From: a virus | Lineage: Duplodnaviria > Heunggongvirae > Uroviricota > Caudoviricetes | Length of the DNA stretch: 11,025 bases | Direction: 5' to 3' (one strand) | Virus record (IMG/VR): IMGVR_UViG_2541047885_000020 | Coordinates: 1-11,025 of that record | Shown: positions 1 through 11,025 of the stretch, piece by piece | Layout: each line of letters begins with the position of its first letter | Numbering within the stretch: position 1 is the stretch's first letter | Program-made: the position numbers and the translations under genes | The notes under the pieces: generated by a model | The model's input: only the letters and a program-made list of their open reading frames with translations | Told to the model about the DNA's origin: nothing | Database searches by the model: none

Positions 1-339
1 TCACAATATTAATTTCGTTTCATGCCAGCCTTTAGTCACCCAGCATTGCGAGTCACCATTACACGGGCATGAATTCACAGGAACTCTCTCGCCGCACTTA
101 CCGCAACGTTTTCTGCTGATCGATTTTATACGCCCGTGCACGCGCGCATCATCCTGGCGGATCAGTAACGCTATATACTCACCAAATTCGTAAGGCGCAC
201 GCCCGGGGCGACGTGTGGCACAGTTACGCTCCAGCATTTCAATTTCCTGAGCATCAAGCACAATCTCCAGCTTACGCACACCAGATGCAGCTTGTCTGGC
301 TATCTGAGCGGCTTTGCGCTCTGCTGCTGCCTTGGTCAT
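1..339 (-). CDS. Hypothetical prophage protein with a C-terminal Cys-rich motif (C-x2-C-x9-C-x-C-x5-C), possibly zinc-binding
   Basis: Complete ORF, stop at 1..3 (TGA on - strand). The track starts it at GTG 351, but ATG 339 lies 8 nt after a GGTGG Shine-Dalgarno, so 339 is the likelier start. Last gene of the leftward accessory cluster. No family recognised. Confidence 0.5.
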   Translation of the reverse strand: MTKAAAERKAAQIARQAASGVRKLEIVLDAQEIEMLERNCATRRPGRAPYEFGEYIALLIRQDDARVHGRIKSISRKRCGKCGERVPVNSCPCNGDSQCWVTKGWHETKLIL

Positions 340-424
340 TACCATATCCACCCAATTTCACCAGACATGATTCTCGCAATCACTATCATCACCAAAGTGA
401 TAATCACAACTTTAACTGGCGGCA

Positions 425-1312
425 TTATTCACCATCATGCTGCGGCGGTTCTGGTAGCGGCATCCAGTGTGATGGTATCCACGACGCACCAGGTATTACC
501 CACCCATCATTAGCGTCAGGATGCCCCGGGATGTAAGTCGCCCATTTCATTCGCCAGTCACCTTTCCTGTCAAACTCCCTGGCAACAAGAACGGCTGTTT
601 TGGTATCCGGCATTCGCTCACTACAGCTTATCCAACCATCCGGAGTTACCGGAACTTGTGGAATGGCTGTCTGCTCTCGAACGTCATTAGGCGCTATAGG
701 TTCTGCTGCCAACTGACTGGCATATTTGTTAATGGTAACGATAAGCTCTTGCTCAGCCTCATCCAGACAATCACCGATACCTCGCCTGTCACCGTCAAAA
801 TCATCGAAATCGGCACGAATCCTGGCAACCTTCAGGATTGCGGACAACACCTCACTAGGAATTGCCGGATAGTTGGTTGACGTTTCCGCGATTTCCCGAA
901 AATTATTGGTTGACGAATTCTTGTTTTCCCGAAAGTTTCCGGACTGAAGCATGGCGGCGCGGCAGGCGTTCCAGGCAAATAGTGCGGCTTCTTCCACTGA
1001 AGGCGGAGAGTATCGCTCGATAAACGCCTGTGCATTTGACAGCCTCCACTCATGAGGCAATACCGGCGCTGGCGGGGCGATGCGTCCAAGCAACTTATTT
1101 ACCTCTTTCGCCATCGCGTCATATTTATCTAAATAGCGATTAGCTTCTAAGCAGACTCGGTGCATCTGATCTGAGTTAACTCGTTTAACGGGATCTGCTT
1201 CCAGCGATGCCAGAGCAATTCGTGCCAGTTCCATTTGTTCGCCACGGGTAAGTCCGTTATCAAGCGGATTTTTAATGAATAATTCGATACGTTCTTTGGT
1301 AATAGTGGTCAT
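425..1312 (-). CDS. DUF551-domain prophage protein (C-terminal DUF551-like signature, N-terminal ~200 aa of unknown function)
   Basis: 295-aa ORF; ATG at 1312 preceded by AGGTG with 8-nt spacing. The C-terminus (...WVIPGASWIPSHWMPLPEPP) matches the conserved end of DUF551 proteins common in lambdoid prophages. Adjacent to the stop of the upstream 63-aa gene. Confidence 0.65.
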   Translation of the reverse strand: MTTITKERIELFIKNPLDNGLTRGEQMELARIALASLEADPVKRVNSDQMHRVCLEANRYLDKYDAMAKEVNKLLGRIAPPAPVLPHEWRLSNAQAFIERYSPPSVEEAALFAWNACRAAMLQSGNFRENKNSSTNNFREIAETSTNYPAIPSEVLSAILKVARIRADFDDFDGDRRGIGDCLDEAEQELIVTINKYASQLAAEPIAPNDVREQTAIPQVPVTPDGWISCSERMPDTKTAVLVAREFDRKGDWRMKWATYIPGHPDANDGWVIPGASWIPSHWMPLPEPPQHDGE

Positions 1313-1314
1313 AG

Positions 1315-1506
1315 CTATTTCACCTTAATCTCAACATTTCGCAGCTTTAGCTCTACTGGCAGGTCTGACTTTCCTGTTAATGCTAATGCGAGATTTTCTG
1401 GAGTAATGAGAGCAGTTATTGTTTTCCCCCTCGCCAGACGAATAATCATTCGTATCTCGCGATCGTCACATGCTCCCGGTCGAACAATTGATATTTGTCC
1501 GTCCAT
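1315..1506 (-). CDS. Small hypothetical prophage protein (63 aa)
   Basis: ATG at 1506 preceded by AGGAG with 6-nt spacing; tightly packed between neighbouring genes in the same operon. No recognisable motif. Confidence 0.5.
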   Translation of the reverse strand: MDGQISIVRPGACDDREIRMIIRLARGKTITALITPENLALALTGKSDLPVELKLRNVEIKVK

Positions 1507-1507
1507 C

Positions 1508-2032
1508 TCACTCTCCTTTGATGCGAATGCCAGCGACGCGTAATGCGTGTTCTAGGTCAATCAGGTAAAGCCAACTGCCATTTTCTTTAGGTATCATGAC
1601 ATGTCGCTCATCTGCATTTATCGGGTGTCCATATCGAAGGTCGTAGCGAGTCGGTAATTGAACTTCCCGCGCTTCCAGTTCAGCAATACGCTTCTCTGCG
1701 GCCTCTGCCCTGCATTGTTCCCGTTGGAACATTTTGTGGGTGCGGTCGAGCGCCTCAAGTCTAGCTGCTGATGTTTTCTCTTCTGCTTCAAGCTCAACGC
1801 GCAGCTTCCCTACCGTTAGCGCAATATCCTCGTTCTCCTGGTCGCGGCTTTTGATGTATTGCAGGTTTCTTTCCCGTTCATCCAACAATGCCAGCGCGAT
1901 ATCTGGCGAAAAGTGCTTCATAAAATCGTTAAGCGCATTAATTCGCTGATCGAAAGGCATTACAGGTGCTTCACCAGCAATTTTTGTTTTTTCAGCGATT
2001 TCACGAAGCTTTTGATAGTCAATCTTGCTCAC
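1508..2032 (-). CDS. Ead/Ea22-like coiled-coil prophage protein (putative)
   Basis: 174-aa ORF starting at GTG 2032 with a perfect AGGAGG 6 nt upstream; GTGA start/stop overlap with the upstream gene. Charged, heptad-like central region (RVELEAEEKTSAARLEALDRT...AEAAEKRIAELEAR). Family assignment is from memory of Ea22-like N-termini and needs profile confirmation. Confidence 0.5.
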   Translation of the reverse strand: MSKIDYQKLREIAEKTKIAGEAPVMPFDQRINALNDFMKHFSPDIALALLDERERNLQYIKSRDQENEDIALTVGKLRVELEAEEKTSAARLEALDRTHKMFQREQCRAEAAEKRIAELEAREVQLPTRYDLRYGHPINADERHVMIPKENGSWLYLIDLEHALRVAGIRIKGE

Positions 2033-2466
2033 TGGCTGCCTCCTTTGCGAAGCTGGGCGGCTAACTCATCACATATGTGCGTCAAAGAACAAAGTTTGAT
2101 TGATGGATGTTCGCGCATCATCTCTACCCCCTGCGCCCGCACTTCAGACAGGAAAGCATCGGTGGCTGGCATATTTCCTGTTGCCTTCATTGCCTCCAAA
2201 ATAACCAGAACGCCATCTCGCCCAATCTCCTCGCAGATAACCTCGGTGCTGTCGCCAACAACATCGCAAAATGCCTGAACTGCTTTACGAGCCAGCGCAT
2301 TCTCCGCAGCCAGCGCATTAGCACGCACCAGTTGCACTTCCAGTTGCGTTGCCAAATAGCTGATCAGCTTTGCCACACTGCGCATATCAACGGCACCACA
2401 TTCTGCTTTCAGTTCCGAAGCCATCTCATGCCCGGCGGCAACTAACCATTTGATATTACTTTCCAT
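2029..2466 (-). CDS. Hypothetical prophage protein (145 aa)
   Basis: ATG at 2466 preceded by GAGGG with 5-nt spacing; stop overlaps the start of the next gene. No family recognised. Confidence 0.55.
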   Translation of the reverse strand: MESNIKWLVAAGHEMASELKAECGAVDMRSVAKLISYLATQLEVQLVRANALAAENALARKAVQAFCDVVGDSTEVICEEIGRDGVLVILEAMKATGNMPATDAFLSEVRAQGVEMMREHPSIKLCSLTHICDELAAQLRKGGSQ

Positions 2467-2527
2467 CTTTACCCTCGCTTATCCACATAACTTATTGATT
2501 ACATTGATAACTAAAAAGATCGTCGAT

Positions 2528-2875
2528 TCAGAACTCTTCGATGTTCCAGCCACCACCTGCTTTCTTTGGCTTAACCGTTACCCCGATGATTCGGAACGGA
2601 TACTGATCTGCGGCGACTTTGGTTTTCACTCTGGCGTCATCGGTCCAGAATCCCCCTTTCACTTCGTGCAGCTCCATCTCGCCGGTGGCGAGCATCACAG
2701 CGAAATCGGGCGTATAGAACGTGTTATTAGCTAACCGCAGCTTGATACCCTCGAATCGATACCAGGCGATTTCCCCTGCACGTTTACGCAGCTCAAGGTG
2801 CTGGCAATACGCAGATTCAGTTTTGTTCATCTGGCCTGTTTTGAGTCGACCAAGAGCCTGTATCTGTTTTCTCAT
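2528..2875 (-). CDS. DUF1064-like small protein, putative PD-(D/E)xK-type nuclease
   Basis: 115-aa ORF; ATG at 2875 preceded by GAGGT with 5-nt spacing. Motifs (NKTESAYCQHLEL...AGEI...TPDFAV...ELHEVKG) resemble the D...E-x-K pattern of DUF1064 proteins found after replication genes in lambdoid phages. First gene after the third operator/promoter module. Confidence 0.5.
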   Translation of the reverse strand: MRKQIQALGRLKTGQMNKTESAYCQHLELRKRAGEIAWYRFEGIKLRLANNTFYTPDFAVMLATGEMELHEVKGGFWTDDARVKTKVAADQYPFRIIGVTVKPKKAGGGWNIEEF

Positions 2876-2878
2876 GAT

Positions 2879-2955
2879 TTACCTCTGAGGTAATTAAAAA
2901 CCACATAAGACATGAAATCAATAGAGCTTATAATATTTTGTTACCTAACGGGTAA
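2879..2955 (-). promoter_or_regulatory. Third operator/promoter module: two perfect TTACC-N5-GGTAA palindromes flanking a leftward promoter
   Basis: Palindromes at 2879..2893 (TTACCtctgaGGTAA) and 2941..2955 (TTACCtaacgGGTAA), centres 62 bp apart, the same spacing as in the PL module. On the - strand the 47-nt spacer aligns with the PL spacer (shared CTATTGA; -35 TTGATT = plus 2916..2921; -10-like TTTAAT = plus 2893..2898). Boundaries are approximate. Confidence 0.45.
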
Positions 2956-2967
2956 TTATCGAGGCGT

Positions 2968-2987
2968 AAAAAAATGCGCTATCGCGC
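2968..2987 (-). terminator. Weak intrinsic terminator after the P-like gene
   Basis: On the - strand: GCGC-GATA-GCGC hairpin (4-bp stem) followed by A and seven U residues, immediately after the P-like stop codon (2993..2995). The short stem makes this tentative. Confidence 0.3.
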
Positions 2988-2992
2988 TGGTA

Positions 2993-3793
2993 TTACTTGA
3001 TAAATCCTGCCGCCTTTCCCCGCCTGTATTCCTCCATCAGCCACTGCGCCGGTGTTATTCCCCCAAGGGTGGCGGCGTTAGGCATGCACCCGAAACTTCG
3101 CCCTGGTGGATGGTAAACGTCTCTCCCTGTGTCCGGAGGTGTACTCATGGGCTCTGGCTTTGCCTGTATGCTGATCACCGGATCGGGTATCTGCTGTCCG
3201 GAAGCCACCTTTTTCGCCCAATCATCGAGCAACCTGCGCGCGTGTTTCTCAACCTCAATCTCGCTAAGCTGGCGCTGATACATTGCACGACGGGTATCAC
3301 ATACGACCCAGTACATAACCGGATGCCGCCACGGGAATCTTTCGGGACCACCAGGATATAAACTTTTTTCCTTGCTGTACCGGTGAAACTCCGCCATCAC
3401 ATCGTCAATGGTGACGCCAAGAACCATCTTGCTGTCTTTGCACCACTTGATGAATTGCCCTGGCGACGGCCAGAACGGAGATTCACTGGCGCGGGCGTGG
3501 CGCATACCAGCAGAAACCTGTTCACGGGTACGTATTCCCCCTTCGGCAAACGCAGCAATCCACTGCTGTTTTGCAGCAACTTCCTGCTCTGGCGTCTTCA
3601 GGTTGGTTACCACTGCCGCCGGAAACAGTTGTTTCAGCTGTTTGAAAAGTGCATCAACAAGCCTCTCTGCTGACATGTTCACCACATTGTCATTGTTGAC
3701 GTACTGATGCTCATAACCTGACATGCGAGAAAGGGCTTCTCCGTCACGGTTTTGTATCGCGGTAAAAACGTTGTTCACAAGAAATCCTCCCAC
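2993..3793 (-). CDS. Lambda P-like replication protein (DnaB helicase loader)
   Basis: 266-aa ORF. By recollection of the lambda P sequence it shares FPA..., Q.W..AF.E.GI.T.EQV.AGMR.AR, PF.PSPGQF..WC and LYP....PW motifs in the same order. GTG start at 3793 overlaps the O-like gene end (3775) by 19 bp. Confidence 0.8.
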   Translation of the reverse strand: MGGFLVNNVFTAIQNRDGEALSRMSGYEHQYVNNDNVVNMSAERLVDALFKQLKQLFPAAVVTNLKTPEQEVAAKQQWIAAFAEGGIRTREQVSAGMRHARASESPFWPSPGQFIKWCKDSKMVLGVTIDDVMAEFHRYSKEKSLYPGGPERFPWRHPVMYWVVCDTRRAMYQRQLSEIEVEKHARRLLDDWAKKVASGQQIPDPVISIQAKPEPMSTPPDTGRDVYHPPGRSFGCMPNAATLGGITPAQWLMEEYRRGKAAGFIK

Positions 3794-4590
3794 GCTTCAG
3801 GGCTGTTCCAGTGCGGAACGTTGTTATCAGGTAATGTTGATTGCTTCTGTCTGCTAATCTGCAGCCGCCTTGCCAGCTTCTGCTCCCACTGTGCCTGATG
3901 GTATGCCTTACCCTCAGCCATCCAGTAAATTCTGAACTCTGCAAGTTCCTGTGCCGTTGGCAGACTGTCCAGGTAGATTCCCTGCAATGAGCTTTTCCGA
4001 AGAAAGTCATCTGATGGCTGCCATTGTTCATGCATGACAAATTTGCCTAATTGCCCTGGCCCACCAGGAGGAACAAAGTTATTCATCACGGCGTTGTTTG
4101 CGCCGGGGTCATGAGGCACAGAATCCCCGGTTTTTGTCCTGCTCTCCCTCTCTTGGTTAAATGACTGGTTATATGACTGGTTCTGGATCCCGTTTTTGGG
4201 ATCATTCAACATCCCGTTTTTGGGATCATTCAACATCCCGTTTTTGGGTATATTCCCGTTTTCGGGAACATTACCGTTTTCGGGTTCATTACACCCTTCT
4301 AGGTTGCCTTTAATGTTCCCGTTTTTGGTTATATTAAGAGAGAAAACCCGCACTCTTTTTGTCGCTCCCTTTCTCTCTCCGGTATCTGAAATAAGCCCCA
4401 TTTTCATGAGCGATATAAGCCCGGCCTGCACGGTTTTTTTATTCAGGCAAGTGTCTTTAACGAGGCGTTCTATGCTGGGGTAGCAGAGGTTATATTCATC
4501 GGCTCTGTCAGCCATCGAGAGCAGTATGAGCTTTAATGATGAGCTACCTGGATCTGTCTCCCAGGCCCAATCTGTTGCATGTCTGCTCAT
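3775..4590 (-). CDS. Lambda O-like replication initiator with an iteron-encoded repetitive linker
   Basis: 271-aa ORF; ATG at 4590 preceded by GGAG with 7-nt spacing. N-terminal HTH replisome-organizer-like region (LKLILLSMADRADEYNLCYPSIERLVKDTCLNKKTVQAGLISLMKMGLI); central low-complexity repeats (PENGNVPENGNIPKNGMLNDPKNGMLNDPKNG) encoded by the iteron array; position immediately upstream of the P-like gene. Confidence 0.75.
   Translation of the reverse strand: MSRHATDWAWETDPGSSSLKLILLSMADRADEYNLCYPSIERLVKDTCLNKKTVQAGLISLMKMGLISDTGERKGATKRVRVFSLNITKNGNIKGNLEGCNEPENGNVPENGNIPKNGMLNDPKNGMLNDPKNGIQNQSYNQSFNQERESRTKTGDSVPHDPGANNAVMNNFVPPGGPGQLGKFVMHEQWQPSDDFLRKSSLQGIYLDSLPTAQELAEFRIYWMAEGKAYHQAQWEQKLARRLQISRQKQSTLPDNNVPHWNSPEAWEDFL
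4187..4340. repeat. Iteron array, probable phage origin of replication inside the O-like gene
   Basis: Exact 24-bp tandem repeat ATCCCGTTTTTGGGATCATTCAAC at 4187..4210 and 4211..4234 (internal palindrome ATCCC/GGGAT), then degenerate copies (CCCGTTTTTGGGTAT, CCGTTTTCGGGAACATTAC, CGTTTTCGGGTTCATTAC, CCCGTTTTTGGTTAT) and an A/T-rich stretch to about 4340. Same layout as ori-lambda. Confidence 0.7.
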
Positions 4591-4605
4591 GATTAATCTC
4601 CGCTA

Positions 4606-4806
4606 TCAGCTTGAGTGTTGTGGGGAGGAATTAATCATGATCTGCTTAATCTCTGCCCTGATGCGACGGTTTGATTCCATGGTGCACTCAACACAGTGTC
4701 CGTTGTAAACCCAGCGTTCACTGTCATGTCCATGCTTACATGGTTTTCCGGTGTAGTAGCGTTTAAGTCCGCGCTTTGCGGCATCAATACGTGTAATGAT
4801 TTCCAT
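4606..4806 (-). CDS. Small Cys/His-rich (zinc-ribbon-like) protein at the cII position, putative regulator
   Basis: ATG at 4806 preceded by AGGG with 6-nt spacing; the longer track ORF starts at TTG 4869 with no ribosome-binding site, so the 66-aa form is preferred. Motif PCKHGH-x10-HCVEC could bind a metal. Function not recognised; not similar to lambda CII as I recall it. Confidence 0.5.
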   Translation of the reverse strand: MEIITRIDAAKRGLKRYYTGKPCKHGHDSERWVYNGHCVECTMESNRRIRAEIKQIMINSSPQHSS

Positions 4807-4904
4807 GGTAAGCCCTGTTATTAGTATTGGGATTACGGTCATTTTGTGCTGACACAAAAAAAAGATCAACCAGATTTGGTTATTTATTACCTTTGAGGTA
4901 CGAA

Positions 4905-4935
4905 TAGATATGAAAAGACCGCCGGGTGGCGGTCT
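4905..4935 (-). terminator. tR1-like intrinsic terminator between the cro-like and cII-position genes
   Basis: On the - strand: perfect 8-bp stem AGACCGCC/GGCGGUCU with ACCC loop (plus 4916..4935), followed by UUUCAUAUCUAUU. It lies about 20 nt after the cro-like stop and about 100 nt before the next start. Confidence 0.4.
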
Positions 4936-4956
4936 ACAGAGGGTTGTAGCTGGATA

Positions 4957-5187
4957 TCATGAGTAGAAGAAGTATGCCAGTTCTGCTTTTGAGCGCAGCC
5001 ATTGTCTTGTTTTACAGGCTTTAAAAAGCCCATTCATCAATACTTTACCTGGCATTTTGCGCTTACCTGTTAAGTGAGTCTGGATATAGTGACTCGTCGT
5101 TCCGGCTTCCTGTGCGAAGGCTTCACGCTCATCCGGAGTAAGTGCAAGCCAGTGCTTTTTGAAATCGAAATGTCCGTTATCGCTCAT
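4957..5187 (-). CDS. Cro-like small HTH regulator (putative)
   Basis: 76-aa ORF divergent from the repressor gene across a 154-bp operator region; ATG at 5187 with AGG 8 nt upstream. HTH-like segment (DEREAFAQEAGTTSHYIQTHLTG). The call rests mainly on position and size. Confidence 0.5.
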   Translation of the reverse strand: MSDNGHFDFKKHWLALTPDEREAFAQEAGTTSHYIQTHLTGKRKMPGKVLMNGLFKACKTRQWLRSKAELAYFFYS

Positions 5188-5212
5188 AGCTATTGCCTGA
5201 TATTTATTTCAG

Positions 5213-5286
5213 ATAATAAATATTCACCCATAAGGTAACAAAAATCAAGGATAGTTACCTATGAGGTGCATTTACCTGTTGGGTAA
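5213..5286. promoter_or_regulatory. OR-like divergent operator/promoter region with three operator sites
   Basis: Operator-like sites at 5224..5238 (TCACCcataaGGTAA, 9/10), 5255..5269 (TTACCtatgaGGTGC, 8/10) and 5272..5286 (TTACCtgttgGGTAA, perfect). Leftward PR-like promoter on the - strand: -35 TTGTTA (plus 5236..5241), 17-nt spacer, -10 TATTAT (plus 5213..5218). The rightward repressor promoter was not confidently located. Confidence 0.5.
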
Positions 5287-5341
5287 TATTGCTTTAAATT
5301 GAATCATCTACTGATTCATATATGAGGCGATTTTCCAGAAA

Positions 5342-5926
5342 ATGAAAAGTATCCAGGACGTCCGCAGGCAAAATCTCAACGACTTGATCGACCGTGAATT
5401 CAATGGTGTTCAGACGCGGATGGCAGAAAAACTTGGAACTCAGGCAAATCTGGTAAACCGCTGGGCTCTTGGCAAGAAGGTTATCGGCGACCAGGTTGCG
5501 CGAAAAATTGAAGCTGCCGCCAATAAACCCCGTAACTGGCTTGATATCGATCGCTCGCTTTCTCAGGAAGGTTTTCAGCCTGTCGGCCCAAGCGACATTG
5601 GTCAGCTGGCGGCTCACAACCTGGAACGCTGGATGAGCGAAAGCCGCGACCTTTCAACGCAGGGAAAACTTCACCGCGCATCCGGCGTCGCCCAGGTGAC
5701 AATCAGTCGCCTGTTAAACAATGAGGTCAGCGTTTCCATTTCCACCCTGGAGAATGTTGCATCCGCATTCGGGCGTCACGGCTATGAATTACTGATTCAC
5801 CCGCACGACCCTGCGACCATCAACTATGACCGCTCGCGCTACGCATTGTTACCCGAAACCGAGAAAGCAAAGATCGAAAGTTACATTGAATTTGTCATCA
5901 ACCAGAACGAAAAAAACAAACAATAA
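5342..5926 (+). CDS. Prophage immunity repressor, XRE-type with two HTH-like segments and no LexA/S24-type autocleavage motif
   Basis: 194-aa ORF between the OR-like and OL-like operator clusters, followed by an intrinsic terminator. HTH-like segments near residues 24-45 (VQTRMAEKLGTQANLVNRWALGK) and 110-135 (LHRASGVAQVTISRLLNNEVSVSISTLENVA). No Ala-Gly/Cys-Gly cleavage site and no GDSM/Ser-Lys dyad visible. Confidence 0.6.
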   Translation: MKSIQDVRRQNLNDLIDREFNGVQTRMAEKLGTQANLVNRWALGKKVIGDQVARKIEAAANKPRNWLDIDRSLSQEGFQPVGPSDIGQLAAHNLERWMSESRDLSTQGKLHRASGVAQVTISRLLNNEVSVSISTLENVASAFGRHGYELLIHPHDPATINYDRSRYALLPETEKAKIESYIEFVINQNEKNKQ

Positions 5927-5946
5927 AATCATACTTTTCAGTAAGT

Positions 5947-5970
5947 AAGCCGCCTTCTGGCGGCTTTTTT
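5947..5970 (+). terminator. Rho-independent terminator downstream of the repressor gene
   Basis: AAGCCGCC-TTCT-GGCGGCTT hairpin (8-bp stem) followed by TTTTTT, 21 nt after the repressor stop codon; no U-tract in the opposite orientation. Confidence 0.7.
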
Positions 5971-5983
5971 ATTGCCTATACTA

Positions 5984-6060
5984 TTACCTGATGGGTAATT
6001 TTTTTAACTCATATCTATTGACATCAAACCAAATACGCATAATTATTACCTCAACGGTAA
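5984..6060 (+). promoter_or_regulatory. PL-like early-left promoter flanked by two perfect operator palindromes
   Basis: Operators at 5984..5998 (TTACCtgatgGGTAA) and 6046..6060 (TTACCtcaacGGTAA), centres 62 bp apart. Consensus -35 TTGACA at 6018..6023; -10 candidates CATAAT (6038..6043) or AATTAT (6041..6046) abut or overlap the downstream operator. The first downstream start codon is at 6080 with GAGG at 6067..6070. Confidence 0.6.
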
Positions 6061-6079
6061 CAGACCGAGGTAACAAGTT

Positions 6080-6232
6080 ATGCAGTGGAAAATCATCAAC
6101 GGTTGGTACTGCGTTACTGCATGCGGATTCATGAGCTGGAAGTTCCGCACCTTACAGGAAGGCATTAAGTGGGCTTTCGTCAGCAAAGAAGCTCGCGATG
6201 TGGCCAACGATAACGAGATATGGGAGGGCTGA
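6080..6232 (+). CDS. Small Trp-rich hypothetical protein (50 aa), first ORF of the early-left operon
   Basis: Absent from the ORF track (below its length cutoff); hand-translated as MQWKIINGWYCVTACGFMSWKFRTLQEGIKWAFVSKEARDVANDNEIWEG. ATG 6080 is 9 nt after GAGG; TGA at 6230..6232. Not arginine-rich, so not an N-like antiterminator. Confidence 0.4.
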   Translation: MQWKIINGWYCVTACGFMSWKFRTLQEGIKWAFVSKEARDVANDNEIWEG

Positions 6233-6234
6233 TA

Positions 6235-6534
6235 ATGAACGTTAATCAGCAGAAAAATCTTCAAAAAATCATGCTGGCATTCGACAAGGACTACCGCCTG
6301 TCAGAACAGCTATATGACCGACAAGTTGAACTGATTGAGAGCATCCGACTTCATCAACTGTCCTCAACTTTCGACGTTGTAACAGGCAAAGGCGTTCGTC
6401 AGGAAGTGCTGGAGGCTGCTAAAGACAGCCCTGAGTTCGAAGAACTGATGGATGCCTACCGGCGCGAGGCAATGGCAATTATAGCGCGCTGGGATCTGGC
6501 GGATCAGCTTGATGGACAGAGGGACGCGGCATGA
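6235..6534 (+). CDS. Hypothetical protein (about 100 aa) coupled to the recombination module
   Basis: ATG at 6235 preceded by GGGAGGG; the track ORF starts at 6220 but the ribosome-binding site favours 6235. Its stop overlaps the exonuclease start (ATGA, 6531..6534). No family recognised. Confidence 0.6.
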   Translation: MNVNQQKNLQKIMLAFDKDYRLSEQLYDRQVELIESIRLHQLSSTFDVVTGKGVRQEVLEAAKDSPEFEELMDAYRREAMAIIARWDLADQLDGQRDAA

Positions 6535-7352
6535 AACCGGGAATTTATTTCGACATCAGCAACGAAGACTACCACGCCGGTGACGGCGTGAGTAAGTCGC
6601 AACTGGACATGGTTGCCAAGAATCCGGCGCTTCTTAAATGGGTTCAGGCAGCACCAGAAGACGAAGAGAAAAAGTCTGCACTGGATATGGGAACCGCATT
6701 GCACTGTCTGCTTCTGGAGCCTGGAGAGTTCGACAAACGCTTCATTGTTTCACCGAAATTCGATCGTCGGACGAAACAAGGTAAAGCTGACGAAGAGGCA
6801 TTTCTTCGTGATGTGGCGGATATGGGGATTACGGTACTTGATGCCGAGCAGTGGCGGAAACTGGAGCTGATGCGTGATAGCGCAATGGCTCACCCGGCGG
6901 CACGCTGGATGCTGGAAGCACCTGGTTACTGCGAAGCATCAATGTACTGGAATGATGAAGAGACTGGTGAGTTGTGCCGCATTCGTCCAGACAAATGGCT
7001 GAACGAGCACAACGTGATCGTCGACGTGAAAAAGGTTGCAGATATGGATCGTTTTGCACGCCACATCGAGGAATTCCGCTACCACGTGCAGGACGCAATG
7101 TACCGCGAAGGAGCGATGAGGGTTACTGGTCAGTCGCATGGTTTTTTCTTTCTTGCCGTGAGCGAAAGCATTGATTGTGGTCGGTATCCGGTACGCATGT
7201 TCGCGCTGGATGCGCCGGATGTCGATGCCGGGCACGCTCTGTTCCGCCGGGATCTGAATACCTATCACGAATGCCGCATCAATGATGAATGGGGCGGCGT
7301 GGAAATTATTAAACGCCCTGACTGGGCACGTAAACAGGATATGTACGTATGA
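6531..7352 (+). CDS. RecE-like PD-(D/E)xK exonuclease (exodeoxyribonuclease VIII-like domain), recombination partner of the annealing protein
   Basis: 273-aa ORF with a PD-(D/E)xK-like arrangement (...CRIRPDKW...IVDVKKV...YHVQDAMY...) and an N-terminal GIYFDISNEDYHAGDGVSKSQL motif resembling the RecE C-terminal nuclease/DUF3799 family. ATGA-coupled to the downstream annealing protein gene. Confidence 0.6.
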   Translation: MKPGIYFDISNEDYHAGDGVSKSQLDMVAKNPALLKWVQAAPEDEEKKSALDMGTALHCLLLEPGEFDKRFIVSPKFDRRTKQGKADEEAFLRDVADMGITVLDAEQWRKLELMRDSAMAHPAARWMLEAPGYCEASMYWNDEETGELCRIRPDKWLNEHNVIVDVKKVADMDRFARHIEEFRYHVQDAMYREGAMRVTGQSHGFFFLAVSESIDCGRYPVRMFALDAPDVDAGHALFRRDLNTYHECRINDEWGGVEIIKRPDWARKQDMYV

Positions 7353-8230
7353 GCAATGATATCGCAATCACATCACAACCAGGCGCAACTGTAGGTACTG
7401 CTGCGGCAATCTTCAGCCCGGAGGGCATGAATCAACTGGTGCGTTTCGCGGAGTTGATGTCACAAAGCAAAGCGACTGTACCGAAACATCTTGAAGGCAA
7501 ACCTGCCGATTGTCTGGCGGTGACCATGCAGGCGGCACAGTGGGGAATGAACCCTTTCGCCGTGGCGCAGAAAACGCATGTGGTAAACGGAACGTTAGGC
7601 TACGAAGCACAGTTGGTAAACGCGGTCGTATCCTCTTCCAGCCTGCTGGCGACACGCCTGAATTATCGCTGGAGCGGTGACTGGTCGAATGTTAACGGCA
7701 AAACAGATAAATCACCGAATCTGACGGTAACTGTGTCAGCAGTTCTTAAAGGAGAAGCAGAACCCCGTGAGCTTACCATCAGTATGGCGCAAGCCGGAGT
7801 GCGTAACTCTCCATTGTGGGAACAGGATCCGCGCCAGCAGCTTGCCTATCTTTGCACGAAACGATGGGCTCGCCTGCACGCTCCTGATGTGCTTCTCGGT
7901 GTTTACACCCCTGACGAATTACAGGAAACGGCACCGCGCGTTGAGCGAGACATTACTCCGCAAACAACTACTGCTGCGGGAATGAACAGTCTGATCAACG
8001 CTAAACCAGTGAAAAAGCCTGATGAGCAAACTCGTAAAGCGGATAGCCGTGATCCAGAAGAAATGCTGATGGCCTTTACCAGCGCAGCGATGAATTACAG
8101 CACTGTCTCCGAACTGGATAAGGCTTACAAATACATTGCACAAAAACTTTCAGATGATGACGAACTGCTGGCAAAAGCCACCGACGTTTACAGCGTTCGT
8201 CGGGAAGAATTAAACGAAACATCTATGTAA
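7349..8230 (+). CDS. RecT/Redbeta (Bet)-family single-strand annealing protein
   Basis: 293-aa ORF. From memory of lambda Bet it shares the core A-D-x-x-A-x-x-x-x-A-x-Q-x-G-[LM]-N-P-[WF] (ADCLAVTMQAAQWGMNPF here vs SDAQFIALLIVANQYGLNPW in Bet) and a downstream ERDITP motif. Sits directly after the exonuclease, as in recE-recT modules. Confidence 0.7.
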   Translation: MSNDIAITSQPGATVGTAAAIFSPEGMNQLVRFAELMSQSKATVPKHLEGKPADCLAVTMQAAQWGMNPFAVAQKTHVVNGTLGYEAQLVNAVVSSSSLLATRLNYRWSGDWSNVNGKTDKSPNLTVTVSAVLKGEAEPRELTISMAQAGVRNSPLWEQDPRQQLAYLCTKRWARLHAPDVLLGVYTPDELQETAPRVERDITPQTTTAAGMNSLINAKPVKKPDEQTRKADSRDPEEMLMAFTSAAMNYSTVSELDKAYKYIAQKLSDDDELLAKATDVYSVRREELNETSM

Positions 8231-8279
8231 CCACCACCGCGGCGCCACACGCGCCGCACTGCAACCAAGAGAGGTATTT

Positions 8280-8528
8280 ATGAAAGGTGCATTAGATAAG
8301 AAGAAACTCCTGGCGGTGGTGCCACTGTCATGGAGCACTATCGACCGTATGGAGCGCGCAGGGGAATTTCCTAAACGCTGGTATATCACTGACAAACGCT
8401 GCGCATGGAACCGTGACGAAGTTGAGCGTTGGCTTGATGAACGTCAGGCAGCAAGCCCGGCAGAGTTCCAGGGTAAAAAGCCTCCTGTTCAGCAACGTGT
8501 ATATCGTCCTGTGAGAAACGCTGCATGA
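8280..8528 (+). CDS. AlpA-family excisionase / DNA-binding regulator (Xis-like)
   Basis: 82-aa ORF; ATG at 8280 preceded by AGAGAGG with 6-nt spacing. Motif (LLAVVPLSWSTIDRMERAGEFPKRWYITDKRCAWNRDEVERWL) matches the AlpA/phage excisionase winged-helix family that typically accompanies P4-type integrases. Confidence 0.75.
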   Translation: MKGALDKKKLLAVVPLSWSTIDRMERAGEFPKRWYITDKRCAWNRDEVERWLDERQAASPAEFQGKKPPVQQRVYRPVRNAA

Positions 8529-8637
8529 GTGTGCTGCTAAGGCACTGGAGCAAATGGTCAGGATGGTACTTATTCCTGGCCTCTGTTTCAGCATGGCTTT
8601 ATCTGCTGGCATTAATTTTCAGAGAGGGTTGGATTAA

Positions 8638-8937
8638 GTGAGAAAGTTAAGCCGACTTGAAAAATATCACATGAATAAGGTTTCAATGCGCAGTCCGTCA
8701 AAGATTGTCGCCGTTACTCCTGCGGCGATAGAGATCGAAAAACGCGCGATTGAAAGAGAGAAAAAAGGGCAATTCCGCATTGCCGCTCACCTTTGGCTTC
8801 AGTGTATGGATGTTGCTTCTGGTGATGTTGAACGTGCAAGGATCGCGGTTCGCAGGGACCAATGTATCACAAAAGGTAACGGCCTTCGCCGTGGCGACTA
8901 TAGCGGCATAGGATGTTGTGGGGTGGTTTATGACTAA
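8638..8937 (+). CDS. PerC/ANR-family-like small transcriptional regulator (putative)
   Basis: ORF with a GTG start at 8638 (AGAGAGGG 9 nt upstream); ATG starts at 8671 or 8686 are possible alternatives. Motif EKKGQFRIAAHLWLQCMDVASGDVERARIAVRRDQC resembles the PerC-family pattern (G-x-[FYW]-R-x-A-A-x-x-W ... ER ... RR..C). The stop overlaps the methyltransferase start. Confidence 0.5.
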   Translation: MRKLSRLEKYHMNKVSMRSPSKIVAVTPAAIEIEKRAIEREKKGQFRIAAHLWLQCMDVASGDVERARIAVRRDQCITKGNGLRRGDYSGIGCCGVVYD

Positions 8938-9580
8938 GAAATACACACTAATCTATGCAGATCCACCCTGGGTATACCGGGACAAAGCCGCAGATGGTAA
9001 TCGCGGTGCCGGTTTTAAATATCCGGTTATGAGTGTGCTGGATATCTGCCGCCTTCCTGTGTGGGATTTGGCCGATGAAAACTGTTTGTTGGCCATGTGG
9101 TGGGTGCCAACACAACCACTCGAAGCACTAAAAGTTGTTGAAGCCTGGGGATTCCGTCTGATGACCATGAAGGGCTTCACGTGGATAAAATGTGGTAGTC
9201 GACAACCAGATAAACTGGTTATGGGTATGGGACACATGACTCGCGCCAATAGTGAAGATTGCCTGTTTGCGGTAAAGGGAAAACTACCTACGCGCATTAA
9301 TGCAGGGATCGTTCAGTCATTTACCGCACCGCGGCTTGAGCATTCAAGAAAGCCAGATGTCGTTCGTGAAAAACTTGTGCAATTGTTAGGCGATGTTTCT
9401 CGCATTGAACTGTTCGCCCGCCAGTCGTCTCATGGTTTCGATGTTTGGGGTAATCAGTGCGAAGACCCGGCAGTGCAACTACACCCTGGATACGCGTTGG
9501 ATATTGCCAGATTAACAAATGCATTCAGCAATGCTCCGCTGTCACCAACAGACAACCAGGGGCGGGAGCGTGCTGCATGA
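8930..9580 (+). CDS. MT-A70-family DNA N6-adenine methyltransferase (orphan, phage-encoded)
   Basis: Catalytic DPPW motif near the N-terminus (MTKKYTLIYADPPWVY...), typical of MT-A70 methyltransferases. ATG 8930 preferred over the track start at GTG 8918; GGGTGG lies immediately upstream. No cognate restriction endonuclease gene nearby. Confidence 0.8.
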   Translation: MTKKYTLIYADPPWVYRDKAADGNRGAGFKYPVMSVLDICRLPVWDLADENCLLAMWWVPTQPLEALKVVEAWGFRLMTMKGFTWIKCGSRQPDKLVMGMGHMTRANSEDCLFAVKGKLPTRINAGIVQSFTAPRLEHSRKPDVVREKLVQLLGDVSRIELFARQSSHGFDVWGNQCEDPAVQLHPGYALDIARLTNAFSNAPLSPTDNQGRERAA

Positions 9581-9771
9581 ACAGGGCATCACCAGCAGAT
9601 TTAAGAAAATGCCTTGAAACTGCAAACATGCTTGCACACAGCGGGATCAGGTTTGTTCCAATTCCCGCTGTCACTGATGCTGAATTTGCAACACTGTCAG
9701 CAATATTCGAAAACAAAATTGAATCACTGGCAGCAGAAGCAGAGATGGAAGAAAATCAGCAGAACTATTAA
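9577..9771 (+). CDS. Small hypothetical protein (64 aa), last gene of the early-left operon
   Basis: ATG 9577 overlaps the methyltransferase stop (ATGA). The track ORF from 9457 is extended upstream in a frame overlapping the methyltransferase, so the short form is preferred. Ends 3 nt before the convergent integrase stop. No family recognised. Confidence 0.5.
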   Translation: MNRASPADLRKCLETANMLAHSGIRFVPIPAVTDAEFATLSAIFENKIESLAAEAEMEENQQNY

Positions 9772-9774
9772 ACG

Positions 9775-11025
9775 TTATTCCCCCGCCATCCACTTCTCAA
9801 ACTTCGACGGGGAGAACGGAATCAGATCCGTATGCTCCCCGTCAATCCAGGAATCAATCATATCGGCCCACTGCTGCAACATGTAGGCGCGCTGTCTGGC
9901 GTATTCCGCTTTGTTATATACGGCGCGCACACCTTTCTGCTCATGTGCCAGAGCCTTTTCAATCCAGTCTGAAGGATAACCAGCCTCATGCAACAACGTA
10001 CTGGCTGTACGGCGCATATCATGTACGGTGAAGTCCTGAATATGCTCACCATCTTCATTTATTATTTTCACCGTTCTGTCGATCAGAGAGTTCAGCGCGG
10101 CATTAGATAATGGCTTCCGGAAGTTGTAACGACCAGGAACCAGATATTCACTTCCACCAGCGCACATCTGCAACCCGACCAATATATCCTGTGCCTGTTT
10201 AGGCAGGTAAATAACATGCGCCCGGCTTCCCTTCATGCGGTCTGAAGGAATTGTCCATGTCCATTTTTTAAAATCTATTTCGTCCCACGTTGCATTGGTG
10301 AATTCGCCTTTACGAACCATAGTGATAAGCACCAGCTTTAAAGCCATTTTCATAGTGCCCATAGCACCAATGGCATCCAGCGTGCGGAAGAACAGGCCAA
10401 TTTCTTCTGGTGTCAGTGTTCGCTCTCGTGGTTTAAATATGGCGATAGACGAAGGTTTAATGTCAGCCGCAGGATTAAACAAACCATGACCACGGTCATT
10501 GGCGTGACGGTATACGCTGCTGATGATCTCCCTGGCCTGCACTGCTGTTGCCCGACCACCGCGTTCGACAATCCGGTCACACAAATCACGAACCATCGAT
10601 GTGGTAATTTCAGTCATCATTTTGTTGCCAAGAACCGGAAGTATGTCACGGTCGATCACCGCCTGCTTCATTGCGCGGGTACTGTCAGCCAGGATGACAT
10701 GTTTCATATAACTGTCGGTATGTACCGCAAACGTCTCGGCACCACGAATCTTTTTGATACCGTCACGTTTAGCCGCAGCCGGTGACTGGCCTGCTTTAAG
10801 CAGCTTCTTTGCAGCAATCAGTTCTTCTCGCGCTTCTGCCAGGCTGATACCGTCACGCCCATACTGCCCGATTACCAGTGTTTCGCGGCGACCGTTGATA
10901 CGGTAGTCATAGCGAAACGAGACCGTGCCTGACGTAAGCACAGCTACATACAGCCCGTCACGATCGGAGACCTTGTACAGTTTGTCCTGCGGCTTGAGGT
11001 TTTTTAATTTTGTATCGGTAAGCAC
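9775..11025 (-). CDS. int: Tyrosine site-specific integrase, P4/IntS-like; N-terminus at the window edge (possibly GTG start or 5'-truncated by the window)
   Basis: 416-aa ORF with the LTDTKLKNLKPQDKLYKVSDRDGLYVAVL N-terminal arm-binding motif typical of P4-type integrases and a C-terminal catalytic region (R...HDMRRT...LAHE...VRAVYNKAEY) with the conserved H-x-x-R and terminal Tyr. The first codon is GTG at 11023..11025, exactly at the window end. Confidence 0.9.
   Translation of the reverse strand: MLTDTKLKNLKPQDKLYKVSDRDGLYVAVLTSGTVSFRYDYRINGRRETLVIGQYGRDGISLAEAREELIAAKKLLKAGQSPAAAKRDGIKKIRGAETFAVHTDSYMKHVILADSTRAMKQAVIDRDILPVLGNKMMTEITTSMVRDLCDRIVERGGRATAVQAREIISSVYRHANDRGHGLFNPAADIKPSSIAIFKPRERTLTPEEIGLFFRTLDAIGAMGTMKMALKLVLITMVRKGEFTNATWDEIDFKKWTWTIPSDRMKGSRAHVIYLPKQAQDILVGLQMCAGGSEYLVPGRYNFRKPLSNAALNSLIDRTVKIINEDGEHIQDFTVHDMRRTASTLLHEAGYPSDWIEKALAHEQKGVRAVYNKAEYARQRAYMLQQWADMIDSWIDGEHTDLIPFSPSKFEKWMAGE

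Follow-up and report, generated by a model that had tools for sequence, protein, structure and literature searches.

The stretch of DNA analysed here (hereafter the window; 11,025 nucleotides, positions 1 to 11,025 of IMG/VR record IMGVR_UViG_2541047885_000020) represents the early region of a podovirus prophage of the phiV10/epsilon15 kind (genus Uetakevirus), and shows 97-98% identity to phiv142-3, ZX5, phiV10 and TL-2011b across most of its length. The element under study is a pair of palindromic sites at 2879-2955, termed the P3 module after the promoter proposed to lie between them. It separates the end of a lambda-P-like replication gene (2993..3793, minus strand; PF06992, E 1.5e-56) from the start of a gene for a DUF1064 protein (2528..2875, minus strand; PF06356), which is probably a Holliday-junction resolvase (phrog_190 'Holliday junction resolvase', E 2e-43) and leads the proposed P3 operon. 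Further along the minus strand follow DUF551, Ea22-like and unknown genes (425-2466) and, as final gene of the operon, a putative transcriptional regulator of the phiV10 gp55/epsilon15 gp49 family (1..351, minus strand; phrog_536, E 1e-52). According to synteny with phiV10 and phiv142-3, this is the last gene ahead of terS, and the terminase pair lies just past window position 1. Two regulatory genes face away from each other in the middle of the window: a repressor gene (5342..5926, plus strand), identified as a Rep homologue by a match to PDB 5D50, by Pfam and by alignment, and a divergent cro-like gene of 76 amino acids read from PR (4957..5187, minus strand; phrog_35 'transcriptional repressor', E 6e-13).

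Five exact copies of the palindrome TTACC-N5-GGTAA were found in the window, starting at 2879, 2941, 5272, 5984 and 6046, together with three degenerate copies at 4887 (one mismatch), 5224 (one mismatch) and 5255 (two mismatches). These are the same eight copies that had been listed in a preliminary description of this DNA, which had also placed them correctly: in the divergent repressor/cro region, at the early-left promoter that precedes the recombination operon, and in the gap separating the lambda-P-like gene from the DUF1064 gene. No perfect copy appeared in 200 dinucleotide-preserving shuffles of the window (mean 0.00, maximum 0). When up to two mismatches were allowed, 14 matches were obtained against 2.98 expected, and the other six of these lie inside coding sequence and are compatible with chance. 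Host DNA does not carry the motif at a similar density, a possibility that the preliminary description had raised: 0 perfect sites were found in 100 kb of E. coli K-12 chromosome versus 8-11 in each 39-42 kb genome of related phages. Of the 15 epsilon15 sites that have no more than one mismatch, 14 fall wholly between genes, although intergenic DNA makes up only 6.6% of that genome (P = 5e-16). The earlier count of three operator modules turned out to be too low, as the site at 4887 forms a fourth one in the window and each of the complete related genomes (phiV10, SPC32H, epsilon15 and Tyrion) holds 14-18 sites at about ten intergenic places. The further sites in these relatives precede the terminase genes, the head operon and the integrase gene, or are found in the regions for antirepressor and tail fibre and for conversion and lysis.

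Within the P3 module, read along the minus strand, the stop codon of the P-like gene (2995-2993) is followed by a weak intrinsic terminator (2968..2987, minus strand), made of a 4-bp GCGC stem, a tetraloop, an A and seven T residues (minimum free energy -7.4 kcal/mol, z-score -1.3) and annotated as a terminator in phiV10. Next come the distal operator TTACCTAACGGGTAA (2941..2955, exact match) and, after 19 nt, a candidate -35 hexamer TTGATT (2916..2921, minus strand), read from the sequence within the block CTATTGA (2918-2924). The candidate -10 hexamer TTTAAT (2893..2898, minus strand) lies 17 nt past the -35 and shares its final base with the beginning of the proximal operator TTACCTCTGAGGTAA (2879..2893, exact match), which thereby overlaps the -10/start region. 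An invariant 12-mer, TCTTATGTGGTT (2899..2910, minus strand), occupies the 3' part of the spacer. The two operator centres would thus be located at about -62 and +1 relative to the predicted start. On the minus strand the proximal operator has bases in common with the Shine-Dalgarno sequence (GAGG) that serves the DUF1064 gene, and ATC alone separates this operator from the ATG at 2875, 3 nt away. The hexamer pair TTGATT-17-TTTAAT matches the promoter consensus at 9 of 12 positions, with the A missing at position 2 of the -10.

The PL module (5984..6060, plus strand), located ahead of the recombination, AlpA-like, PerC-like and methylase genes (from 6080, plus strand), is built in the same way. 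It comprises a distal operator (5984-5998), a -35 TTGACA (6018-6023), a -10 AATTAT (6041-6046) and a proximal operator (6046-6060); its hexamers match the consensus at 10 of 12 positions, and it is scored as a strong promoter by a consensus scan. Directly upstream stands the terminator of the repressor gene (5947..5972, plus strand; minimum free energy -18.7 kcal/mol, z-score -5.2). PL and P3 share the complete order of distal operator, 19 nt, -35, 17-nt spacer and a -10 overlapping the proximal operator by one base. As had been proposed, the spacing is 62 bp centre to centre in both pairs (2886/2948 and 5991/6053) and CTATTGA stands 16-22 nt past the distal site in both. The PL pair is spaced by 62 bp in 145 of 152 loci and by 61-63 bp in the rest, and the module is conserved in eleven genomes. 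The further suggestion that the third module is a copy of PL holds for its architecture and fails for its sequence: the spacers are identical at 21 of 47 positions (P = 0.03), but outside CTATTGA they agree at 14 of 40 positions, as shuffled sequence would (P = 0.40), and a recent duplication of PL was rejected as the origin of P3.

Conservation of P3 was assessed in 156 IMG/VR loci covering the module, in a set of 80 loci for diversity and in eleven genomes of about seven genera. The module, which the preliminary description had proposed to look for in related prophages, is present in all of the 156 contigs and all of the eleven genomes. Its two sites are 62 bp apart in 156/156 loci, both being perfect in 152 and one carrying a single mismatch in the other four. 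Among E. coli loci there is almost no variation in the -35 block or in the spacer, and the proximal operator has an N5 of the form T-N-A-G-R, which preserves the overlapped GAGG ribosome-binding site. In all eleven genomes the terminator is present, as are the two operators, a 17-nt spacer and the junction with the ATG, and the promoter position with its hexamers is likewise kept. CTATTGA is found in ten of them at the same distance from both operators (Tyrion has GTATTGA), the -10 equivalent is TTAAAT or ATAAAT in other genera, and the terminator is kept in 11/11 as GCGC-N4-GCGC, then A (G in one genome) and seven T residues. The genes on either side, on the other hand, are exchanged: upstream there may be a P-like gene or only a DnaT-like one, and downstream either the DUF1064 gene or a gene for a RuvC-like resolvase, which replaces it behind the same cassette in epsilon15 and Tyrion. 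In the epsilon15 group the intergenic cassette is the sole part matching the window. By sequence comparison, this pattern is the footprint of a self-contained regulatory cassette, and the joint conservation of terminator and cassette across genera is compatible with the earlier view that the weak terminator behind the P-like gene fits a separately controlled operon.

A different behaviour was observed just beside these conserved blocks. In otherwise near-identical E. coli prophages, the N5 centre and about 10 nt on the outer side of the distal operators are hypervariable, both at P3 (2941-2966) and at PL (5973-5998). Nucleotide diversity (pi) is 0.27-0.48 there, compared with 0.000 in the half-sites and 0.013-0.145 at four-fold synonymous sites of ten neighbouring genes; for the distal P3 operator in the 80 loci it is 0.48 at N5 and 0.26 over the 10 nt on the outer side, and 27 distinct N5 sequences were counted. 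Candidate causes are a mutational hotspot, diversifying selection on operator strength and short-patch recombination. For the supposedly uncontacted centre and the outer flank, a diversity 4-8 times that of synonymous sites suggests, as a possible added layer of control, that selection or a hotspot may tune operator strength between competing homoimmune phages.

The repressor encoded in the window is homologous over residues 1-190 of 194 to SPC32H Rep (PDB 5D50, E 4e-42), with an N-terminal DNA-binding domain, a middle domain of the HTH_3 fold and a C-terminal tetramerisation domain. Its identity is 43% to the Rep proteins of SPC32H and epsilon15 and 78% to that of Tyrion, and the recognition helix NLVNRW is invariant in the aligned sequences. 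The S24 peptidase domain associated with RecA-dependent autocleavage is absent, as Pfam finds helix-turn-helix-type domains only. The protein is not of the lambda-cI-like kind; it is a tetrameric repressor of the SPC32H Rep type that has no autocleavage domain. Rep is reported to bind palindromic sites as a tetramer, with pairs of DNA-binding domains contributed by different dimers, and to be released by the tetrameric antirepressor Ant. The fold of its C-terminal domain is that of a DNA-looping tetramerisation domain. A small, LexA-controlled antirepressor encoded elsewhere in the prophage is typical of such systems: ant is annotated in the SPC32H record, and a small gene takes its place in phiV10 and epsilon15; this locus is located outside the 11-kb window. 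In phage ZX5, which is nearly identical to the prophage studied here, overexpression of the annotated repressor ORF21 abolished free phage and reduced holin and endolysin transcripts by more than 99.9%; operators were not defined in that study.

Several observations connect this repressor with the palindrome. Three of the sites are found in the repressor/cro intergenic region, where they overlap the divergent promoters. One of them (5224..5238, one mismatch) lies in the core of PR, which reads leftward, between TTGATT (5248-5243) and GAATAT (5225-5220); the same pattern is seen in 153/153 loci and is conserved in SPC32H, epsilon15 and Tyrion. The other two, at 5255-5269 (two mismatches) and 5272-5286 (perfect), are adjacent, with centres 17 bp apart, and occupy the interval between PR and the repressor gene (5255..5286); SPC32H and epsilon15 have the same pair, both sites being perfect there. 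In the RefSeq record of epsilon15 (NC_004775.2), seven 'protein_bind, repressor, lysogeny' features have exactly this motif, and one of these, at 35906-35922, is homologous to 2941-2955 in the window. Every genome found to encode a full-length Rep carries the motif at the same places, namely phiV10, SPC32H, epsilon15 and Tyrion as well as prophages of Superficieibacter, Erwinia, Klebsiella, two Citrobacter species and Scandinavium. Five remote matches limited to the N-terminal domain (35-40% identity) lack such a motif. Taken by comparison, the evidence supports (A)TTACC-N5-GGTAA(T) as the operator of the tetrameric SPC32H/epsilon15-type Rep, and the motif behaves as such.

The fourth module of the window, P2, consists of a single operator, TTACCTTTGAGGTAC (4887..4901, one mismatch), behind a strong terminator that follows the cro-like gene (4916..4935, minus strand; minimum free energy -15 kcal/mol, z-score -4.6). 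The operator is located 17 nt upstream of the promoter-like sequence TTGATC(4869-4864)-17-CAAAAT(4846-4841), ahead of the replication operon. This module was found by pattern search in nine of the eleven genomes and in 121 loci, with one half-site always degenerate. P2 has only this upstream operator, and the promoter-proximal partner seen in PL and P3 is missing.

From sequence, conservation, geometry and repressor homology, all of which are directly observed, we infer Rep binding, P3 activity and bridging, and we regard it as probable that the palindromes are Rep operators and that P3 is a separately locked promoter for the operon downstream. An antitermination cascade is apparently absent, and terminators would split the early-right region into units that each have their own operator and promoter: PR would serve the cro-like gene, P2 the replication genes, and P3 the operon running from the DUF1064 resolvase gene to the regulator gene ahead of the terminase genes. 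A separate switch at P3 fits the terminators after cro and after P and the lack of a recognisable antiterminator. P3 itself would be a weak sigma-70 promoter (TTGATT-17-TTTAAT, minus strand), enclosed between an operator near +1, which would cover the ribosome-binding site too, and a second operator 62 bp upstream. In the lysogen, Rep on both sites would exclude RNA polymerase. As 62 bp corresponds to about 5.9 helical turns, both operators are on the same face of the helix, and one tetramer with two DNA-binding pairs could hold both of them; Rep would thus probably act as one bridging tetramer or as cooperating tetramers. When an antirepressor dismantles Rep, P3 would fire independently of PR. 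The earlier proposal that the repressor directly silences a third transcription unit is consistent with the operator-like behaviour of the motif, the PL-like geometry and the conservation, which makes the case by comparison; binding and the transcription start are deduced. It is doubtful that the arrangement goes further, to the point where distributed locking replaces antitermination, every lytic unit has its own Rep operator, and a single tetramer clamps a 62-bp micro-loop at both PL and P3.

Some results weigh against the proposed lock at P3. The consensus scan did not call this promoter, whose -10 is without the key A at position 2, and called an antisense promoter instead. The terminator is weak, so that upstream transcription could pass and a promoter of its own is not strictly needed. 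The invariant 12-mer in the spacer hints at a second regulator, in which case P3 may not be a simple constitutive promoter. The half-sites are identical in all relatives, which leaves no repressor-operator covariation: when relatives with a changed recognition helix were sought, the same half-sites accompanied every full-length Rep found, in four phage genomes, 160 IMG/VR loci and six further species. Finally, bridging of 62 bp by one tetramer is suggested by geometry only. The poor, uncalled -10 and the feeble hairpin (-7.4 kcal/mol, z-score -1.3) would suit an arrangement in which Rep binds the pair with no promoter in between, and the DUF1064 operon is transcribed by read-through from P2 or PR; Rep would then block the passage of polymerase as a roadblock, or it would anchor long-range loops that reach OR at a distance of 2.3 kb, a role for which its looping-type tetramerisation domain would be appropriate. 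P2, having an upstream operator only, could be leaky enough to supply such transcripts. We consider this unlikely, because in 10 of 11 genomes CTATTGA occupies exactly the PL-type -35 position and is followed, after a constant spacer of 17 nt, by a hexamer rich in A and T, because the hexamer in Klebsiella is near consensus (TATAAA/ATAAAT), and because the cassette is kept when the upstream genes differ, as fits a self-contained promoter.

The promoter called on the plus strand (AAGACA at 2907-2912, 16 nt, TATAAT at 2929-2934) could itself be the object of control and give a Rep-repressible RNA directed against the 3' end of the P-like gene. With a 10/12 match it is the sole promoter that the scan called in the module, and the E. 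coli prophages keep its two hexamers well, most of them having TAGAAT as the -10. However, they are not kept in SPC32H, epsilon15, Tyrion and the other genera, though the module is; promoter-like matches in the region are at chance level (4 versus 4.7); and no fitting Rfam family or downstream open reading frame was found, the structured-RNA search having returned no Rfam matches in the window. An antisense role is thus quite improbable. Since sites in relatives also precede late units (head, tail, lysis and terminase), as would be expected for a late activator, it may also be asked whether the palindrome is read by a protein other than Rep, such as the cro-like protein by itself, the product of the regulator gene at 1-351 or some factor of the host. 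This appears very improbable: sites overlap the cores of PR and PL, which would make no sense for a late-gene activator, 100 kb of host DNA lack the motif, which co-occurs with the NLVNRW helix in seven genera, and the authors of the epsilon15 record assigned the sites to the repressor.

A second palindrome, CCATATATGG(T/A)T, often degenerate, was observed exactly 7 nt from the promoter-proximal operator in PL and P3 and from the single operator in P2. Its copies in the window are located at 2899-2910 (minus strand), 4870-4879 and 6028-6038, the first being the P3 12-mer, which is a degenerate copy of CCATATATGG; others were found at 3307, 20920 and 24738 in phiV10 and at 34217, 35387 and 37310 in Tyrion. 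In relatives, copies also accompany the single operators of the promoters for head, tail fibre and lysis, at a distance of 28-40 nt on the downstream side. This palindrome may be the site of another regulator, and as a possible added layer of control the 10-bp palindrome CCATATATGG may bind the cro-like protein or the middle helix-turn-helix domain of Rep. By eye, it is unlike the consensus sites of CRP, IHF and DnaA.

Upstream of the repressor gene, neither a Shine-Dalgarno sequence before the ATG at 5342 nor a convincing promoter was found (5287-5341). By analogy with lambda cI transcribed from PRM, the repressor mRNA may be leaderless or nearly so. In phiV10, a perfect operator lies inside an inverted repeat with 13-bp arms (GGAGTGCTTATAT-operator-ATATAAGCACTCC, 20484-20524), immediately past the small gene that is found where SPC32H has ant; Tyrion has a perfect operator at the corresponding position. 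In phiV10 the small terminase gene is annotated as starting at 41, ahead of two operator sites (87 and 105) that are intergenic in epsilon15, SPC32H and Tyrion, and the true start is probably an ATG near 120. The remaining genes of the window are a DnaT/O-like gene (3775-4590, minus strand), a gene of 66 amino acids (4606-4806, minus strand) and the integrase gene (9775-11025, minus strand). Six iteron-like repeats CCCGTTTT[T/C]GGG, with periods of 24 and 18, were found at 4184-4336 within the DnaT/O-like gene; as with the lambda O gene, this array probably serves as the origin of replication.

Among known systems, epsilon15 is one of the closest. It has the same motif (ATTACC-N5-GGTAAT) in the same placement, including the site at 35906-35922 after a replication gene, but its record marks only the distal P3 site, none of the three OR sites and no promoter, and the P3 site there lies between a DnaT-like gene alone and a RuvC-like resolvase gene. 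The repressor-binding sites of epsilon15 were reportedly predicted by Kropinski et al. in 2007. The Rep/Ant switch of SPC32H (PDB 5D50 and 5D4Z) shares the repressor family, the operator half-sites and the 62-bp P3 pair with the window, and it is said to have been worked out by Kim and Ryu in 2013 and by Kim et al. in 2016. ATTACC-N5-GGTAAT at the rep/cro divergent region and at PL is a common feature of this type of system, found in the window and in SPC32H, epsilon15, Tyrion and phiV10. The tetramerisation fold of SPC32H Rep is reported to be shared with Rco of plasmid pLS20, which loops DNA through its TetDloop domain and bridges separated operators. Rco belongs to a conjugative Bacillus plasmid with another operator layout, and looping by Rep itself would be hypothetical.

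Lambda OL/OR resembles the present system in its divergent repressor and cro genes, in the palindromic operators over the early promoters and in a repressor gene co-oriented with PL. Lambda has three adjacent sites per operator, a RecA-cleavable repressor that assembles from dimer to octamer, and nin and Q expression solely through N-dependent read-through from PR. Here, in contrast, PL and P3 have two sites 62 bp apart, the three sites of OR are spaced by 17 and 31 bp, the repressor would be a tetramer disabled by an antirepressor, as homology with SPC32H indicates, and each unit has its own operator. In phage P1, one repressor, C1, directly controls many dispersed units, including the route to late expression, through asymmetric 17-mers. 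The scattering of operators across the genome (14-18 sites at about ten places) is similar here, whereas the sites are palindromes, often paired, and the repressor is unrelated, with matches to Rep and helix-turn-helix families only.

For epsilon15 the repressor family, the motif, the dispersed sites and the annotation of the homologous distal site are known in the public record. A full-text search of the literature found neither the operator sequence nor repressor binding sites for Uetakevirus. As far as the accessible literature shows, four features are new: the pairing of operators at -62 and +1 that PL and P3 have in common, a cassette that is portable, its occurrence in about 10% of complete E. 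coli genomes, and the sharp conservation footprint. Prophages with this repressor and with this module were found in 539 and 529, respectively, of 5426 complete E. coli genomes, or about one in ten. Members of this group change O-antigens and are used for detection and as an engineering chassis.

The finding does not overturn current views of phage regulation and, although solid, would be unsurprising to a specialist. The cassette would represent a compact and portable Rep-controlled promoter and a natural test case of repression by a tetramer over 62 bp, and it indicates which short cassettes the engineering of such phages would have to preserve or mutate. For the biology of the family, an operator for each lytic unit would explain how a phage without an N/Q-type cascade is kept silent.

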